From the NCBI GenBank assembly GCA_041690595.1, contig JAWLHB010000026.1, forward strand, positions 1 to 64,000: a DNA stretch of 64,000 nt, in the 5' to 3' direction. Shown piece by piece: positions 32,302 to 38,793 of the stretch (position 1 is its first letter; each line of letters begins with the position of its first letter). This DNA comes from Lentisphaeria bacterium (lineage in GTDB: Bacteria > Verrucomicrobiota > Lentisphaeria > JABSQK01 > JAWLHB01). A program made the position numbers and the translations under genes. The notes under the pieces are model-generated. The model saw nothing but the letters and a program-made list of their open reading frames with translations, was not told the DNA's origin and ran no database searches.

Positions 32302-33552
32302 ATGGGTAATATTCGCAAACGACGCCGCGACCCTCTCGCTCGGGAGGATGTGAAGAAGGCGCACAAGCGTCTGCTTATCCGTCGTGGCAGCAGCCCTGGC
32401 GTGGCGGGTGAGGACAAGAGTCTGCAGGCGATGCACCGTCGTCGGCGGTGGATCATTCAGGCAGCCCTGGCGCTGGCGGCGGTCGTCGCCGTGGTGGGCA
32501 CATGGCTGCAGTCGCGCCACGACGTCATCCCGAAGCCACCAAAGCTTTACATACCCGTCGGAGCGCCCGCGCCGATCTTTGGGGACGCGGCAAGTCTCCC
32601 GGTCGGTGCCCGCGAGGTGGCAGATGCCCGCCTGGCCGGCTTGGCTGGACTGGCGGAAGGAAGCGGACTGGCGCAGCAGACGCAGCTCGCCCTTGCGGAG
32701 GAAATGAAGTGGCCCGTTGAGATCGAAAACTCCATAGGCATGCGTTTCCGGTTGATCCCGCACAGTACCTTCGTCGTGGGCACTCCTGATGAAGCGGTGC
32801 AACGGGCCCCTGATGAGACGGCTCGTGTCGCCGCGATTCGACGACCTGTCTACATGGGGATGCATGAGGTGACGCAGGCGCAGTGGGAAGCGGTCATGGG
32901 CGCCGGCACCAACCCTGCCGAATTGAAGGGCGCGAATCGACCGGTGGAAAACGTGACCTGGGTAGAGTGCCGCGAGTTCATCGCCAAGCTGTGTGAGATC
33001 GAGGGGGTGCCGCGTTGGTCATACCGCCTCCCCTATGAGGCAGAGTGGGAATACGCTTGTCGTGCCGGCACTCAGACCGCCTGGCATTGCGGTGATGACG
33101 ATAAACAATTGCCCAAATACGCCCTCTTTTACCGCAATGTCACAGCGTCGGGAACTGAGCCGGTGGGGCAGCGACGCCCAAACGCCTGGGGACTTCACAA
33201 CATGCATGGCAATGTCTGGGAATGGTGCCTGGAAAAGTTCTACTACTACGAAGATCTGGAAGTCAAGGATGAGGTCCGACGCGTGATTCGCGGCGGAAAC
33301 TGGCATCTGGAGGCTGTTGACTGCCGCTCCGCAAGCCGGTACCGGCTGCCGCCGCTCTCGCACAGCAACCTGCTTGGCTTCCGCGTTGTACGCAGCATCT
33401 ATCGGCCGGCGCCGCCCGTCTTTCACCCGGCAGAAGGTGACCGTGCCGCGCGGGAACGCGCGCAACAGGATCCGCTGGATGCCCCTGTCGTGCCCGATGA
33501 GGAGCTATTCGACGTCGAGACACCCGAAGTTGACGTGCAGGAGCCACAGTAG
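32302..33552 (+). CDS. Membrane-anchored formylglycine-generating-enzyme (SUMF1/FGE-sulfatase) domain protein
   Basis: NSIGM, EVTQAQW, PVENVTW, YRLPYEAEWEYACRAG, NAWGLHNMHGNVWEWC, GFRVV. Confidence 0.9.
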   Translation: MGNIRKRRRDPLAREDVKKAHKRLLIRRGSSPGVAGEDKSLQAMHRRRRWIIQAALALAAVVAVVGTWLQSRHDVIPKPPKLYIPVGAPAPIFGDAASLPVGAREVADARLAGLAGLAEGSGLAQQTQLALAEEMKWPVEIENSIGMRFRLIPHSTFVVGTPDEAVQRAPDETARVAAIRRPVYMGMHEVTQAQWEAVMGAGTNPAELKGANRPVENVTWVECREFIAKLCEIEGVPRWSYRLPYEAEWEYACRAGTQTAWHCGDDDKQLPKYALFYRNVTASGTEPVGQRRPNAWGLHNMHGNVWEWCLEKFYYYEDLEVKDEVRRVIRGGNWHLEAVDCRSASRYRLPPLSHSNLLGFRVVRSIYRPAPPVFHPAEGDRAARERAQQDPLDAPVVPDEELFDVETPEVDVQEPQ

Positions 33553-33613
33553 ACTTCATGCTTGCGTTGGCCGATCTCATGCGACCGTCATGGCCGGATC
33601 CTGGCACATGGGC

Positions 33614-33653
33614 AAAAAGAAGCCCCGCGCACCGCGTGTAGCGGCGGCGGGGC
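33614..33653 (-). terminator. Probable intrinsic terminator after rplT
   Basis: Minus strand GCCCCG..CGGGGC stem followed by TTCTTTTT. Confidence 0.65.
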
Positions 33654-33678
33654 AAAACATACCGAACGGCAGTACCGG

Positions 33679-34041
33679 TCAGCTCTTGGCGATGGCCTGA
33701 CGGGCTTGGGTGACGACGGCCTCGAAGGCATCGGCGTCACGCACGGCCATATCAGCCAGAACCTTGCGGTTCAGCTCGATTCCGGCCAGCTTGAGGCCAT
33801 GAATGAACTGGCTGTACGTCATGTCAAGGCTGCGACAGGCGGCATTGATACGCACGGTCCACAGGCGACGGTACTCGCGTTTCTTCTGCTTGCGCCCTTC
33901 GTACGAAAAGGCATTCGCCTTGTTGACGGCGCCGTACGCCTGGCGGATAAGTTTGCTGCGCGAGCCGCGAAAACCGCTGGCGCGCTTGAGCACTTTTTTG
34001 CGACGCTGCCGTGAGGCAGGGGAACTGGTTGCGCGTGGCAT
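33679..34041 (-). CDS. rplT: 50S ribosomal protein L20
   Basis: [41 protein letters not shown]. Confidence 0.97.
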
Positions 34042-34115
34042 GATTCAGTCTCCGGTTGAGTGAAAGTAAGCACAGGGGCGGGAGCAAGCCCGCCGCGGAC
34101 GGTGGGGGGCGGCGA

Positions 34116-34313
34116 TCAGTCGTACGGAAGCGAAGCTTTGATTCGCTTGATCTCCGTGGACTTGATCAGGGCGGGGGTGCCGAGACGGCGCTTCCGCTTG
34201 GCGGACTTCTTGGTGAGAATGTGCCGACCACCGGCCCGGTAGTGCATGTACTTGCCTGTACCGGTCTTCTTCACGCGCTTTTTACAACTCTTTCGGGTCT
34301 TCTGTTTGGGCAT
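34116..34313 (-). CDS. rpmI: 50S ribosomal protein L35
   Basis: MPKQKTRKS..KRVKKTGTGK..HILTKKS.KRKRRL; synteny. Confidence 0.95.
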   Translation of the reverse strand: MPKQKTRKSCKKRVKKTGTGKYMHYRAGGRHILTKKSAKRKRRLGTPALIKSTEIKRIKASLPYD

Positions 34314-34486
34314 TGTCTGCTCCGCTCGCTTGTTGGTATCGTGTGAGGTGCAGGCTACCGGGGGAGCCGGATTCATCGCCGTCGCGATGCCACGGTCAGC
34401 CATACATAAAACTTCTGCCCGCGGGGAAACTGAACAGATCGCGCAGCACCCGGGGCAGTTTTCAGGGGATAGAGCTGGTTGTGAAC

Positions 34487-35002
34487 TCAGGTAGCGTTCG
34501 GACTGAATTGCAGACTTACCACGCGACCTTGCATCCGCGCGCGCCCTTCAGCCGTTCCGTGTTCCTTGACATCTTCCGTGATCTTCTCGATCAATTCCAT
34601 GCCGATCTCACGATGCGCCATCTCTCGGCCCCTGAAAAACAGGGAAACCTTGACTCTAAACCCTTTGTCGAGAAAGTCAACAATGTGGGCAAGTTTTGTC
34701 TTGTAGTCGTGCTCGTCGATGTTGGCGTGGAATTTGATCTCTTTGTTCTTCTGGGTGGCCTGCTTACGCTTCTGTTCGCGCTCGCGCTTGTTTTTCTCGT
34801 AGACGTACTTGCCATAATTCATGAGTCGGCAGACGGGCGGAGTAGCCTTATCGGCGACCGCAACGAGATCAAGTCCGTTTTCCTTGGCCAGCGCCAGTGC
34901 CTTATCAATGGGAAGAATGCCCAACTGATTGTTCTCCGGATCGATCAGGCGGACTTCACGTCCACGCAGTGTCCGGTCGTTATCTCTGACAACGCGAGAA
35001 AT
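34487..35002 (-). CDS. infC: Translation initiation factor IF-3 (probable ATT start)
   Basis: EVRLID, GLDLV..PPVCRLMNYGK..Y, KEIKF..I.EHD..K, FRGRE; GGAGG 8 nt before in-frame ATT at 35002. Confidence 0.95.
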   Translation of the reverse strand: MSRVVRDNDRTLRGREVRLIDPENNQLGILPIDKALALAKENGLDLVAVADKATPPVCRLMNYGKYVYEKNKREREQKRKQATQKNKEIKFHANIDEHDYKTKLAHIVDFLDKGFRVKVSLFFRGREMAHREIGMELIEKITEDVKEHGTAEGRARMQGRVVSLQFSPNAT

Positions 35003-35091
35003 AGCTCGACCCTCCATTTAGGTTTATTTGTGCAGAAAACCCCCTTGCGCACGAACTGGCGGGCGCATCGAGAATTTTCACATTACTAAAG

Positions 35092-35097
35092 TATAGG
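35092..35097 (-). promoter_or_regulatory. Putative -10 element (TATACT) for infC operon
   Basis: TATACT on minus strand in AT-rich intergenic region; no clear -35. Confidence 0.4.
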
Positions 35098-35155
35098 AGT
35101 TCTTAGCCAAAATAAAAGAGCAGGAAATCTCTCACGCTCGACTTTTTTGCCCAAA

Positions 35156-36427
35156 TCAGTCCAAATCGTTCATCATTCTCAGCATTGACCGCAAGTGCCG
35201 ACGGTCCACACGGTCGTTTTCGCCACTTCTGGTGTGCCGAAGCGCGACAAGGTTGGCGGCAATCTCTCGCTCGCCCAGGATGCAGGCACATGGCACGGCC
35301 AGTTGGTGCAGGAGGCGTACCCGTGCCCCCAGAGTGCGGTCGGAGGGCCAGACCTCGGCGCGAATAGCCGAATCGCGAAGGACGTGAAGGAGCTCTTCCG
35401 CGGCGGCCTGCTGATGCTCGATCACGGGCAGAATAGCAACCTGCAGTGGCGCCAGAAAGAAGGGCAGGTGGCCGCTGCCGTGCTCGAGAAGAAGCGCACA
35501 CTGATGCTCCAGGCTGCCGAGCAGTTGCAGGTGAATCACCATCGAGTCGCCGCGGGGGCGAAGCGAACAGCTGCCTGTCCAACTCTCGCGACCGAGAGGA
35601 TCCACCACATACGCCTGCACGCTTGCCCCGTCCTGGTGGCGACGGATGGGGACGACAGCTTTCCGATATGACCCGAGAACCATCGACAGGAGCCCTTCGA
35701 GCGGCTCCATGTGGTCAGGGTGCGCCTGGTGCAGGCGAAGCGTCGGAGGTGGAAGTTGCAGGCGCTTCCAGTGCCGGTGCGCCACCGCCAGGACCTGGTG
35801 CAGCTTGTCGGCCAGCTCCGCTCGGGTGACCTGCCAGGTCATGAGGTCGACGCGCGGTGATGCCGTGGGCAGCAGCTGTTGCCAAGGCTGATGCAGCGAC
35901 GCGGAAGCAAGGGGGCCAAGTTCAGCGACGTCTTCTCCGAGGGCGGCATGTGCCAGACAACGTTCCTCGAACGTCGCGGCCGTGGTGACACGCCGCAGGC
36001 CGTGCTCGGTGGCTGTCTGTTGCCAAAGGTCGGCGATCAGCTTGCCCAGCAAGTCACCTCGGGGCTGCCACCGCGGCCCGTCGCGCGAGACCGAGTACAA
36101 CCCAAGGCGTTCCCCCAGGCCGCGGCAGTCACCCTGCTTAGCCTGCTGAAGAAGGTCGAGCCGTGCCTGCAACTCGTCAGCGCAGGGGCAGCAGAGTCCG
36201 TACAGGCGATGATGGTGCGCCTGCGTGCTGCTGCTGTGATGGCGATAGGGAGCGCCGTGAAGAACGGCGACGCACGGGTGGGGCATGATGGTGGGGGAGG
36301 GTGGGGCGGCGCCTGCCGGCAGATCGAGATCGCAAATGAAACGTTCGTGATCGGTTCGTACTGCCGCGAGGTGGCCGGCCGCGACCGCCGGTACGCTGTG
36401 GAGGATGTCGGTAAGGGGCGATGTCAT
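35156..36427 (-). CDS. Degenerate threonyl-tRNA synthetase paralog (ThrRS-like pseudoenzyme or decaying thrS), 423 aa
   Basis: RLYG..ELQARL..QQAKQGDCRGLG..LGL (cf. RIYG..EEAKKRDHRKLG), DPLGRESW..SC, MVIH..LGSLEH, LPFFLAPLQV.ILP anticodon domain; native thrS position. Confidence 0.78.
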   Translation of the reverse strand: MTSPLTDILHSVPAVAAGHLAAVRTDHERFICDLDLPAGAAPPSPTIMPHPCVAVLHGAPYRHHSSSTQAHHHRLYGLCCPCADELQARLDLLQQAKQGDCRGLGERLGLYSVSRDGPRWQPRGDLLGKLIADLWQQTATEHGLRRVTTAATFEERCLAHAALGEDVAELGPLASASLHQPWQQLLPTASPRVDLMTWQVTRAELADKLHQVLAVAHRHWKRLQLPPPTLRLHQAHPDHMEPLEGLLSMVLGSYRKAVVPIRRHQDGASVQAYVVDPLGRESWTGSCSLRPRGDSMVIHLQLLGSLEHQCALLLEHGSGHLPFFLAPLQVAILPVIEHQQAAAEELLHVLRDSAIRAEVWPSDRTLGARVRLLHQLAVPCACILGEREIAANLVALRHTRSGENDRVDRRHLRSMLRMMNDLD

Positions 36428-36524
36428 GACAAAAGATAATGGTGGCTTGATTTAACGCCAGCCGCTTGCCGGTGGAGAGGGAGCGGATACAGTTGGACAA
36501 ATCCTAAACTCTTTAACGAGGAGC

Positions 36525-37013
36525 ATGCAAGCGATGGACGAACTGGACAAAGGACTGGCAATTTCCCTGCGCGGAACGGCGGCAGAAGAAGCCCTCGAGC
36601 GTTGCCGGAAGGTCTTGGCGGCGTGGCAGGTCGCCATGCCGGACGTACAGCCTCTGGTGCTCGATTTCGGCCTTGGCGATTTCGCCGGGACCGGTCTGAT
36701 TGAATACTGGATCGCCAACGAGGCGGAGGCCGGCTATTGCGGCAAGTATCTCTTCGTCTTCGAGGGGCAGACATGTCCCCTCCATCGTCACGCCCGAAAG
36801 ATGGAGACCTTTTTTGTGGTGAAGGGGCGCCTGCTGGTCAACTACGGAGAGCGCCAGTTGGTGCTGAACGAGGGCGATGTGCTGCCGGTACAGCCCGGGC
36901 ATTTTCACAGTTTTACTGGCGAGGGCGGGCCTGCCCTGCTGCTGGAACTCTCGATGCCCTGTCAGGTGCAGGATAACGACTTTGCGGACGAACGCATCCC
37001 CATCGGCCGCTGA
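36525..37013 (+). CDS. D-lyxose/D-mannose family sugar isomerase (cupin)
   Basis: YCGKYLF..GQTCPLHRH..KMETF, PGHFHSF, E.S. Confidence 0.82.
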   Translation: MQAMDELDKGLAISLRGTAAEEALERCRKVLAAWQVAMPDVQPLVLDFGLGDFAGTGLIEYWIANEAEAGYCGKYLFVFEGQTCPLHRHARKMETFFVVKGRLLVNYGERQLVLNEGDVLPVQPGHFHSFTGEGGPALLLELSMPCQVQDNDFADERIPIGR

Positions 37014-37016
37014 TGG

Positions 37017-37367
37017 TCAGGATCGCTCCTCCCGATAATGGATGGCGAGCCAGACACACGGCGGCGTGCTGCTGGTTGCTTCGACCCGATGGCGGCAATG
37101 TGCGGGGATCAGGATGTAGTCGCCAGGGACGAGCTGGAGCGGTGCGTGGGCATCGGCGAAACGGAGGGTTGCCTCGCCTTGCAGAAGGAGAACCCATTCC
37201 GGGCGCTCCTGATCATACCACGCATCGGCGGCGGTCACGTGCCCTTGCGATACGATACGTTCCACCAGCAGGCCTGCCTGTTCGACGAGCGGCTCGAAGG
37301 CTTCGTCGGCACCTCGCACGGGAAGGTCATGGTAAAGATTCTTGAGTATGGGGAGTGGCATGGGCAT
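37017..37367 (-). CDS. Cupin domain protein
   Basis: ERIVSQGH..WYDQ...EWVLLLQG.A.L, IPAHCRHRV..T...CVWLA. Confidence 0.85.
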   Translation of the reverse strand: MPMPLPILKNLYHDLPVRGADEAFEPLVEQAGLLVERIVSQGHVTAADAWYDQERPEWVLLLQGEATLRFADAHAPLQLVPGDYILIPAHCRHRVEATSSTPPCVWLAIHYREERS

Positions 37368-37479
37368 TTCCTGCTTTATATTCCCGCCTGAGGCGAATGC
37401 CTCTTCCCGAACACTATAGCACCACCAGAGAGAGCTTTCTTCCGTGCGTCTGACCCGAAATCTCGAGCCAGTAACCGAT

Positions 37480-38793
37480 ATGGAACGTGCCGCCGCGGAG
37501 ATCGTCCGGCGTCTCCATGAGGCGGGGCATCAGGGCTACATGGTGGGCGGCGCGGTCCGGGATCGCCTGCTCGCACGGCATCCCAAGGACGTTGACGTGG
37601 CAACCGATGCCAGACCCGAGCGCGTCCAGAAGCTCTTTCCACGCACGCACGCCGTCGGCGCGGCATTCGGGGTGGTCCTGGTGCGCATGGGTGACCTCGA
37701 TATCGAGGTGGCCACCTTTCGCATTGAACGCGGCTATCGCGATGGCCGACGGCCAGACGTCGTGGACTACGCGACGGCCGAAGAGGATGCGTGGCGGCGC
37801 GACTTCACCGTCAACGCTCTCTTCTACGATGCCGTGGCTGGCGAGGTTGTCGATCATGTCGGCGGTCTGGCGGATCTGGATCGGGGAGTTCTGCGCGCGA
37901 TTGGCGACCCCCACAAGCGCTTTGCCGAGGATCACCTGCGGATGCTGCGCGCCGTACGCTTCGCCTGCAGCCTGGGCTTCGCTCTCGATGAGAAGACCGC
38001 CGACGCCATTCGCGATGCCGCGCCGGCAATTACACGAATCAGTGCCGAGCGCATCCATATGGAGCTGACGCGCATGCTGACGGGGCCGCGCCCCCACCGA
38101 GCCATGGCGATGCTCGACGATCTGCAACTTCTGCACCACATCCTGCCGGAAGTTAGCGCCATGAAGGGCGTTCCCCAGCCACCCCAGTTTCATCCGGAAG
38201 GCGATGTCTGGATTCACACGCTGCTCCTGCTCGAACTGATGGTGCATCCGCCGGCCGTACTGGCATGGGCATGCCTGCTGCACGACGTGGGCAAGCCTCC
38301 CACCTTCGCGCGCAGGGAGGATGGTCGCGAGACCTTTCCCTGTCATGCCGCCATCGGTGCCGACATGACGGCCGACATACTGAGGCGCTTGCGCGCGTCG
38401 CGCAGATTCACCGATGATGTGCGGGCGCTGGTCGAGACGCACATGACCTTTGCGCATGTCAAGGAGATGCGCGTGGCAACCTTGCGCCGGCTCATGGCTC
38501 GTCCCACCTTCGATCTCGAACTCGAGCTGCATCGCATCGACTGTTCCGCCAGCAGCGGGTGGATGGATAATTACCTCTTTCTGCTGGACAAGTTGCACGA
38601 GGTGGCCAACACCCCGAAGTTGCCCGAGCCCCTGCTGACCGGGCGCGATGTCCTGGCCCATGCTATCCCCGCGGGGCCGGCGATAGGGCGGATCCTCGAA
38701 GAGGCGCGCGAGCTGCAATTGAATGGCACCTTGAGCAGCCGCGAGGGAGCCCTGGCATGGCTTGCCGGGCGGGCGCATGGGGAGAAGGGCTGA
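37480..38793 (+). CDS. cca: CCA tRNA nucleotidyltransferase with HD domain
   Basis: VGGAVRD..KDVDVAT, E..Y.DGRRP loop, RRDFTVNA, EDHLRMLRAVRF, QPPQFHPEGDV..H, LLHDVGK; start 37444 or 37480. Confidence 0.88.
   Translation: MERAAAEIVRRLHEAGHQGYMVGGAVRDRLLARHPKDVDVATDARPERVQKLFPRTHAVGAAFGVVLVRMGDLDIEVATFRIERGYRDGRRPDVVDYATAEEDAWRRDFTVNALFYDAVAGEVVDHVGGLADLDRGVLRAIGDPHKRFAEDHLRMLRAVRFACSLGFALDEKTADAIRDAAPAITRISAERIHMELTRMLTGPRPHRAMAMLDDLQLLHHILPEVSAMKGVPQPPQFHPEGDVWIHTLLLLELMVHPPAVLAWACLLHDVGKPPTFARREDGRETFPCHAAIGADMTADILRRLRASRRFTDDVRALVETHMTFAHVKEMRVATLRRLMARPTFDLELELHRIDCSASSGWMDNYLFLLDKLHEVANTPKLPEPLLTGRDVLAHAIPAGPAIGRILEEARELQLNGTLSSREGALAWLAGRAHGEKG

Follow-up and report, generated by a model that had tools for sequence, protein, structure and literature searches.

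The open reading frame (ORF) at positions 35156-36427, on the minus strand of a 64,000-nucleotide (nt) stretch of DNA from a Lentisphaeria bacterium (contig JAWLHB010000026.1, positions 1 to 64,000; here called the window), encodes a 423-amino-acid (aa) protein, P0001 or pThrS, which descends from threonyl-tRNA synthetase (ThrRS) and has lost the catalytic signature of that enzyme. The ORF lies directly upstream of infC-rpmI-rplT on the same strand, that is, in the classic thrS-infC-rpmI-rplT position, and is best read as the in-place remnant of a native thrS that was displaced by a ThrRS gene of another clade. Relaxed purifying selection is the best reading of how the frame was kept, and we hold with about even confidence that P0001 is a selected, catalytically dead, RNA-binding pseudo-synthetase derived from the native thrS. 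The translation of P0001, its binding to RNA and any regulatory role are predictions made from sequence. Coordinates given below refer to the minus strand of the window unless stated otherwise.

Sequence features of P0001

P0001 begins with an ATG and runs for 423 codons without interruption inside a stop-to-stop frame of 431 aa. Against TIGR00418, the equivalog model of Threonine--tRNA ligase, it scores 109.9 bits in two separated pieces and misses the cut-off of 383.65. The sole Pfam domain found is HGTP_anticodon (PF03129; aa 329-417, E 3.1e-11, 43.7 bits against a cut-off of 21), the HGTP-type anticodon-binding domain (ABD), and tRNA-synt_2b, the class II core, gave no Pfam match in P0001 even at E ≤ 1. 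The hisS model reaches 28.7 bits confined to the ABD (aa 328-408), with no HisRS-type core, and NF011500, which describes the free-standing ThrRS editing protein / Ser-tRNA(Thr) hydrolase, reaches 31.4 bits over aa 319-400 only, again within the ABD, against a cut-off of 362.

Along the protein, the likeness to ThrRS is uneven. The N-terminal remnant (aa 1-57; 36257-36427) shows faint colinearity with the start and the end of the ThrRS editing domain, the remainder being deleted, and is modelled with low confidence. The linker helix and the start of the class II core (aa 58-149; 35981-36256) are still matched by ThrRS models, with aa 68-149 giving 28 bits against the hidden Markov model (HMM) of the native ThrRS type, clade A, which is defined below; the weaker of the two matching pieces, aa 39-119, aligns to residues 184-262 of Escherichia coli ThrRS, and GDCRGLG (aa 99-105) occupies the RDHRKLG/RDHRRLA site of ThrRS in the alignments. 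The next segment (aa 150-295; 35543-35980) is a shrunken and unrecognisable catalytic core, about 70 residues shorter than in ThrRS and without any ThrRS profile match, in which EERCLAH (aa 154-160) is aligned to the KPMNCPFH site and the motif 2 region is not alignable to ThrRS. The last segment (aa 296-417; 35177-35542), which scores 71 bits against the clade A HMM, contains the motif 3 strand, with GSLEH (aa 304-308) in place of GSxER and His308 in place of the motif 3 Arg, followed by the ABD, and in a structure-sequence alignment the C-terminal 109 residues of P0001 correspond to E. coli ThrRS 507-615 without a gap. Of the Zn ligands of the threonine site, which we take to be numbered Cys334, His385 and His511 in the E. 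coli enzyme, the first and third positions align with Cys157 and His299 of P0001, His299 being aligned with His511, whereas for the second, which in ThrRS lies in the QDDAH stretch, P0001 has no corresponding segment.

The same gradient was obtained by counting the 119 columns that are near-invariant (at least 95% identical) across 42 ThrRS of this bacterial class. P0001 retains 9/36 of these columns in the N-terminal/editing region, 6/15 in the linker and motif 1, 8/53 in the catalytic core, where 21 are deleted, and 10/15 in the end of motif 3 and the ABD; a second alignment gave 9/36, 7/15, 7/53 and 10/15 for the same four regions. Overall, P0001 is about 150 residues shorter than the clade A enzymes of relatives, and its editing region is mostly deleted. 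No ThrRS similarity was detected in the other reading frames of the region or in the 270 nt upstream, and a frameshift was thereby ruled out as the cause of the unrecognisable middle. Since the ThrRS-matching pieces share one frame, the net length changes are multiples of three, and the losses would have consisted of substitutions and deletions that jointly preserved the reading frame.

An initial annotation of this DNA, made from the sequence alone, had described a 423-aa frame colinear with ThrRS at the thrS locus, with the GDCRGLG and EERCLAH replacements, the loss of motif 2, the GSLEH motif and a retained ABD. The alignments reproduce each of these features, with colinearity running from the linker helix to the C-terminus, and the HMM search that it proposed recovers HGTP_anticodon and not tRNA-synt_2b. 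Two further proposals stand in part: the two likely Zn ligands fall on the first and third positions, leaving the second vacant, and of the suggested loss of the TGS and editing regions the editing part holds, while precomputed Pfam lists show that native clade A ThrRS have no TGS domain anyway.

By any sequence criterion tested, P0001 would not qualify as a synthetase. That it is still an enzyme, either an active and very divergent ThrRS or an adenylate-forming protein with another substrate, is considered extremely unlikely. An AlphaFold2 model based on an alignment of 88 rows reaches good confidence from residue ~80 onwards (mean pLDDT 84.8, pTM 0.85) and keeps a class II-like fold that superposes on ThrRS structures with TM scores of 0.67-0.76 at 14-18% identity, although the alignment consists mostly of real ThrRS, so that the model shows fold compatibility and not folding. 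This fold and the two occupied Zn-ligand positions would suit an enzyme, but the motif 2 region is missing or cannot be aligned, His replaces the motif 3 Arg, 45 of the 53 core columns are lost, the core domain is undetected and the genome carries an intact thrS. The residues retained also differ between lineages, the relatives of genus g2 described below keeping the motif 3 Arg and losing the Zn His.

Probable displacement of the native thrS

The genome to which the window belongs (G000; 8.1 Mb in 99 contigs, 97% complete) contains exactly one match above the thrS cut-off, a 641-aa frame of 675.6 bits on contig C10 (C10:155487-157187), and no infC lies near it. The tRNA-Thr genes are ordinary, numbering three (anticodons GGT, TGT and CGT) among 48 tRNAs. 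In a tree of 44 ThrRS, the enzymes of the class split into clade A (SH-aLRT 100), which takes in database proteins labelled Lentisphaeria and Victivallaceae, and clade B (SH-aLRT 85), which contains the C10 enzyme and also a database protein labelled Pseudomonadota. The two clades coexist in this bacterial class, with a single intact copy per genome. The C10 enzyme itself is 66-75% identical to six database proteins and 53-60% identical to many others, including those of clade A type.

The clades differ in their genomic setting, infC being immediately downstream of thrS at 16/17 clade A loci versus 0/15 clade B loci. The lone clade A thrS away from infC is that of G032, whose infC sits on a separate contig and is not preceded by a ThrRS remnant. 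P0001 scores 101 bits with the clade A HMM and 83 and 80 bits with two clade B HMMs, and in a quick C-terminal tree it falls within clade A on a very long branch; very long branches affect every tree that includes the eroded proteins. Because of the clade A locus pattern, the HMM scores and the C-terminal tree, P0001 is taken to be what is left of the infC-linked gene native to this genome, with the C10 gene as its replacement. The initial annotation had concluded that aminoacylation must come from another thrS, in agreement with the one intact, clade B gene on C10, but had called P0001 a paralog, a term less apt than remnant of the native ortholog. The clade B thrS may have been acquired by transfer or may be an old paralog. 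A near identity of clade B thrS across genus g2 was also noticed and turned out to be ordinary strong conservation, with 93.6-98.4% nucleotide identity and differences mostly at third positions.

Selection on the open frame

The state of the frame was compared with neutral expectation in a substitution-only simulation that started from a relative's thrS and was stopped when the ABD had reached 50-75% identity to the start (400 runs per setting). A frame of 423 codons without a stop survived in 0-2.5% of runs, the average number of stops being 3-8, in a setting that excludes insertions and deletions (indels) and covers a divergence much smaller than the real one. Codon-position structure is retained in P0001, with a GC content of 0.75/0.47/0.73 at positions 1/2/3, and the codon-usage score of the frame is +0.185, while the two shifted frames score -0.26 and -0.46. 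In near-identical contigs from sediment DNA (runs X1-X3; read-length pieces of depth 2-3), two covering pieces, both within the ABD, carry seven differences, and the four that are listed within the ORF are all third-position and synonymous. The catalytic core, usually the best-conserved part of ThrRS, is the most eroded in P0001 and the ABD the least, which is the reverse of uniform decay.

Close orthologs of P0001 were found neither in a word search of 5.8 billion proteins nor among genome contigs or metagenome contigs, and the ratio of nonsynonymous to synonymous substitution rates (dN/dS) was estimated in genus g2, a relative within the same order that carries an equivalent eroded gene. Six of six full-length g2 copies (from three genomes and three metagenome contigs, one contig being identical to G011) are without a stop or an indel. 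Among these copies, the deeper pairs give a dN/dS of 0.30-0.44 (bootstrap 95% intervals spanning 0.22-0.58 in three of them) and the closest pairs 0.53-0.68; by thirds of the gene the values are 0.44-0.58, 0.29-0.36 and 0.24-0.36, all below 1, and the genes neighbouring the g2 ORF give 0.13-0.27. The outcome named in the initial annotation as pointing to a plain pseudogene, that is, frameshifted or absent orthologs with dN/dS near 1, was not encountered where it could be examined, the g2 copies being intact in six of six cases with ratios of 0.30-0.44 in the deeper pairs.

These data bear on the explanation that P0001 is a plain pseudogene under neutral drift whose frame is open by luck, which is judged very unlikely. 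The loss of the catalytic signature, the lack of a public protein record and of a Shine-Dalgarno-like sequence, and the complete loss of the remnant in several relatives would all be consistent with it. However, the frame rarely stays open in the neutral runs, at far less divergence than that observed, the ThrRS-matching pieces lie in one frame with codon-position structure, all four listed strain differences are synonymous and the erosion is region-specific; in g2, moreover, dN/dS is well below 1 and the six copies contain no indels.

Apparently repeated erosion among relatives

The order to which this bacterium belongs is represented in the collection by 15 genomes, all with infC. An intact clade A thrS precedes infC in 6/15 (family f5 and G008), a clade B thrS lies elsewhere in 8/15, and a full thrS was not found in G005 (84% complete). 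A short ThrRS-derived ORF stands before infC in 6/15, namely G000 (423 aa), G003 (222 aa) and four g2 genomes, where it has 348 codons from the conserved start and one of the four copies is cut off by a contig end; g2 and G003 also have an intact thrS elsewhere in the genome. Among metagenome sequences, the relative L057, whose translation initiation factor IF3 is 72% identical to that of G000, carries an eroded ORF directly upstream of infC whose frame runs open as far as the contig end (181 aa). In the eroded ORFs of g2, G003 and G006 Pfam sees the ABD only. The G006 ORF (263 aa; contig C684, L032 5950-6741, minus strand) joins an unrecognisable N-terminal part to a ThrRS-type ABD (Pfam 51.9 bits) and adjoins rpsB, not infC.

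The eroded proteins of G000, g2, G003 and L057 are mutually just 23-32% identical, only the last ~100-140 residues being recognisably alike. In the IF3 tree, G008, with its intact thrS, is the sister of g2 (support 89), G003 groups with G009, and G000 stands apart. Because genomes with an intact clade A gene are thus placed between the eroded lineages, erosion looks independent in each, and it seems to have occurred at least three times within this order.

Related proteins in Chlamydiia

An exhaustive search returned several proteins, 470-515 aa in length, whose alignment to P0001 forms a single stretch and which are themselves sub-threshold ThrRS (TIGR00418 155-317 bits), with an ABD and a core domain that is weak or absent. 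Six of these lack, as P0001 does, ~30 residues that in ThrRS follow motif 1 and precede the KPMNCP site, and an HMM of the six matches P0001 along a single stretch (aa 67-405) with 180.8 bits, whereas the clade A HMM gives 101 bits in two pieces; the higher score is biased, since the six were chosen for hitting P0001. One of them, P0191, comes from a Chlamydiales metagenome-assembled genome (MAG) and is named 'His/Gly/Thr/Pro-type tRNA ligase C-terminal domain-containing protein' at NCBI, a name that is an automatic domain label, as for the chlamydial group as a whole. It aligns over P0001 aa 74-407 with 25% identity (E 2e-22) and scores 183 bits with TIGR00418.

With P0191 as query in species genomes, three chlamydial MAGs were found (100, 64 and 50% identity); each has the gene immediately before infC-rplT-pheS and a real thrS (650-655 bits) at another place. 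In a sample of Chlamydiia, 26/121 genomes match P0191 at E ≤ 1e-30, and six further loci that were fetched all have the gene before infC, three at full length, two without the ABD and one split. In total, the eroded gene is directly upstream of infC in 9/9 Chlamydiia genomes examined, with a real thrS elsewhere in 3/3 checked. Six full-length chlamydial proteins retain 9-13/53 core columns and 11-12/15 ABD columns. The chlamydial group therefore resembles P0001 in being an eroded ThrRS with an ABD, in the deletion after motif 1, in its adjacency to infC and in the presence of thrS elsewhere, but differs in that the editing-like N-terminus is recognisable (10-19/36 columns), the proteins are longer (490-536 aa) and the genes abut infC. 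A provisional group of infC-linked eroded ThrRS-like proteins can be described on this basis, to which P0001 belongs by its sub-cut-off score and undetected core domain, and G000, g2 and G003 by having the ORF directly before infC together with an intact thrS at another site in the genome. Which parts of the ancestral gene have survived varies from lineage to lineage.

It is clearly unlikely, in our estimate, that all these proteins form one older ThrRS-like pseudo-enzyme family with a single origin in the ancestor of the PVC (Planctomycetota-Verrucomicrobiota-Chlamydiota) bacteria or spread by transfer. Such a family would account for the ~30-residue deletion common to P0001 and the six public proteins, for the one-stretch HMM score and for the grouping of all 11 eroded proteins in a joint tree (SH-aLRT 86). 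Yet the HMM score carries the selection bias mentioned above, the joint tree unites extremely long branches, so that false joins may occur, and the proteins of G000, g2, G003 and L057 share little identity outside their C-terminal part. Furthermore, sister lineages (G008 beside g2; family f5) still have their clade A thrS intact at this locus, and a shared eroded ancestor would thus require replacement of the locus in those lineages. Because of this locus history we think parallel erosion more likely than a single old family.

The infC leader and coupling to downstream genes

The pThrS-infC spacer (35018-35155) is AT-rich and 138 nt long and contains a -10-like hexamer, TATACT, at 35095-35090, with TATAAT at the aligned place in L057. 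The own -10 of infC suggested by the initial annotation is thus present as a hexamer, and no full -35/-10 pair was found by a promoter scan of the spacer. The infC frame (IF3; 34487-35017), identified with Pfam like rpmI (L35; 34116-34310) and rplT (L20; 33679-34041), has an upstream ATG at 35017; its real start is, however, probably the ATT at 35002-35000, 8 nt after a GGAGG (35015-35011). G000, L057, g2 and G003 all have the conserved arrangement GGAGG-N8/9-ATT, and an unusual AUU start of infC is known from E. coli. In G000, g2 and G003 the spacer before infC is ~140 nt or more. Given a spacer of at least 138 nt, the conserved GGAGG-N8-ATT and the -10-like hexamer, infC should need no coupling to the P0001 ORF. 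In the metatranscriptome run X5, near-identical contig pieces cover rplT/rpmI and infC and none covers the ORF, although contigs cannot show absence. A block, TCGATGCGCC (35071-35062), in the infC leader is common to G000 and g2 (L031 ~1935-1950) and lies at the base of a local hairpin.

These observations are relevant to the possibility that P0001 is an operon-hostage relic without a function of its own, open and foldable only through its expression with the essential infC-rpmI-rplT, which we regard as possible though not probable. Under this explanation, held with the same reserve, stops would bring about polarity or abolish promoter or leader signals, variants that misfold would be costly, and the gene would shrink in frame and disappear once infC had become independent. 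What is constant across lineages is indeed the position before infC and not a domain, the ABD being kept in the order of the Lentisphaeria type and the N-terminal part in the chlamydial G371 and G399. The sizes are graded (423, 348 and 222 aa, then nothing), one copy is split, the remnant has vanished in several lineages, the chlamydial ORF ends within ~30 nt of the infC frame and selection is relaxed relative to neighbouring genes. On the other hand, the spacer of ~140 nt or more in G000, g2 and G003 and the -10-like hexamer in G000 and L057 make coupling unlikely, and P0001 lacks a Shine-Dalgarno-like sequence. The dN/dS of 0.30-0.44 in g2, with all thirds below 1, lies below the expectation from stop avoidance alone, the ThrRS core is the most eroded part and the ABD the least, and the ABD-only ORF of G006 persists beside rpsB, away from infC.

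A proposed RNA-binding role

The ABD is the best-preserved part of P0001 and of most other eroded lineages, and five of its residues (Gly319, Leu350, Gly385, Glu388 and Arg397) do not vary in a comparison of five eroded lineages with two real ThrRS. In E. coli ThrRS (PDB 1QF6), Lys599 and Glu600 hydrogen-bond the anticodon, and Ile578, Val595 and Asp598 contact it, according to the excerpted text of bioRxiv 10.1101/2022.11.21.517450. In the gap-free alignment these positions correspond to Arg387, Glu388, Leu366, Ile383 and Glu386 of P0001, in the order given, GERE replacing GDKE. A pseudo-synthetase that binds tRNA-Thr or another RNA is proposed because the ABD, including the anticodon-contact residues, survives best.

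The sequence of events under this proposal would be that the original infC-linked thrS was displaced, with the clade B ThrRS of contig C10 taking over the charging of tRNA-Thr; that the displaced gene was afterwards stripped of its catalytic centre and of the greater part of its editing domain while its frame was preserved; and that the remnant persists as a presumably translated frame under relaxed purifying selection. The preserved ABD, carried on a shrunken class II scaffold, may bind tRNA-Thr or an anticodon-arm-like RNA without charging it. Possible roles would be the sensing or buffering of tRNA-Thr, or the control of the adjacent translation-factor operon. E. coli ThrRS has a regulatory role in which it binds an anticodon-arm mimic. 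Near the present locus no such mimic was seen, and the spacer and the leader of the ORF fold no better than shuffled sequences (z -0.63 and +0.52, respectively).

A number of observations count against a selected RNA-binding protein. No Rfam match was found in 33000-37500 at E ≤ 1 that might represent an operator-like RNA, and no Shine-Dalgarno-like sequence precedes the ATG of P0001, whereas infC, rpmI and rplT each have one. The codon score of 0.185 is about one standard deviation below that of the long ORFs of the genome (mean 0.30, standard deviation 0.11), the strain evidence amounts to four sites on contigs of depth 2, and the lineage of P0001 itself offers no ortholog close enough for dN/dS. 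Not one protein among 1.84 billion representatives matches P0001 at E ≤ 1e-30, and a self-hit is absent from both public protein collections, in which the intact thrS product of G000 is present (P0024); gene callers apparently did not emit P0001. The structural model, as noted, addresses fold compatibility. The closest relative by IF3, L057, has an ABD only 32% identical to that of P0001. In G002, G006 and G009, where thrS is away from infC, nothing ThrRS-like is left upstream of infC, and the remnant is likewise absent at infC in 4/4 genomes examined of family f9, which has a clade B thrS; the remnant is dispensable over time. Finally, among the chlamydial copies those of G371 and G399 (L152 and L153; 435 and 392 aa) are without an ABD and that of G368 (L155) is split into frames of 453 and 72 aa, and a function centred on the ABD therefore does not fit everywhere.

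The initial annotation had left a choice between a neofunctionalised pseudo-synthetase and a frame-preserving relic. Both are retained here, the pseudo-synthetase with about even confidence and the relic, as set out above, as possible though not probable; some lineages have lost the gene or its ABD, or carry it in broken form. The broader proposal, that these proteins represent an undescribed kind of bacterial pseudo-synthetase from which catalysis was repeatedly stripped and in which the RNA-binding, regulatory half was kept, in parallel in bacteria of the Lentisphaeria type and in chlamydia-like bacteria, is tentative and, at present, unlikely.

Comparison with known systems

The displacement of synthetase genes is established, and so are synthetase-like proteins with new roles, such as HisZ, ThrRS-L and Anabaena T1/T2. 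With bacterial ThrRS (E. coli, PDB 1QF6), P0001 shares colinearity from the linker helix to the C-terminus, a gap-free ABD, the superposition of its model and the position of its locus, but it scores below the cut-off, its class II core is undetected, motif 2 and the motif 3 Arg are lost, and it would not be the charging enzyme of the cell. The short active ThrRS of ~410-420 aa that consist of core and ABD (P0144 and P0155) are its top sequence matches and share its length and ABD; they have a strong tRNA-synt_2b domain (145-155 bits), whereas P0001 has none.

HisZ lacks an ABD and keeps its core as a histidine sensor. In P0001, by contrast, the core is eroded and the ABD kept, and its relation to HisRS runs only via the shared ABD fold (28.7 bits). 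The two have in common that they are class IIa synthetase relatives without adenylation activity, HisZ having a non-catalytic role as the HisRS-like regulatory subunit of ATP phosphoribosyltransferase in the excerpted account of PMC9437257. A second ThrRS-type gene beside the housekeeping one is described for Anabaena (T1/T2) and for vertebrates (ThrRS-L, TARSL2) in excerpts of PMC9437257 and PMC4787780, where ThrRS-L is proposed to handle tRNA-Thr rather than to supply translation. The Anabaena and ThrRS-L copies keep aminoacylation activity, of which P0001 appears incapable by its sequence. The table consulted in PMC9437257 contains no catalytically dead bacterial ThrRS paralog, and, within the open-access full-text collection searched, neither a paper on such a protein nor a study of the chlamydial eroded proteins was found.

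The fate of displaced synthetase genes has rarely been followed, and here a displaced thrS would have stayed as an open, conserved frame at its old locus, with the catalytic centre erased and the ABD preserved in what appear to be several independent lineages of two bacterial classes. Should P0001 bind tRNA-Thr or mRNA, it would be the first pseudo-enzyme of bacteria to derive from ThrRS and would offer a handle on the separation of the moonlighting and catalytic roles of synthetases. If it is functionless, it would clearly illustrate in nature how an expressed relic can be kept open by a neighbouring gene, with a bearing on annotation, as pipelines drop the ORF or name it generically, and on estimates of how long dead genes persist. 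It should be of interest to those studying synthetase evolution and pseudo-enzymes.

Flanking genes

Upstream of P0001, the plus strand of the window carries a cupin/D-lyxose-isomerase-like gene (36525-37013) and a gene for a CCA-adding tRNA nucleotidyltransferase (37444-38793), between which a second cupin gene (37017-37367) lies on the minus strand. Genus g2 does not share this neighbourhood (36525-38793) upstream of its ORF.

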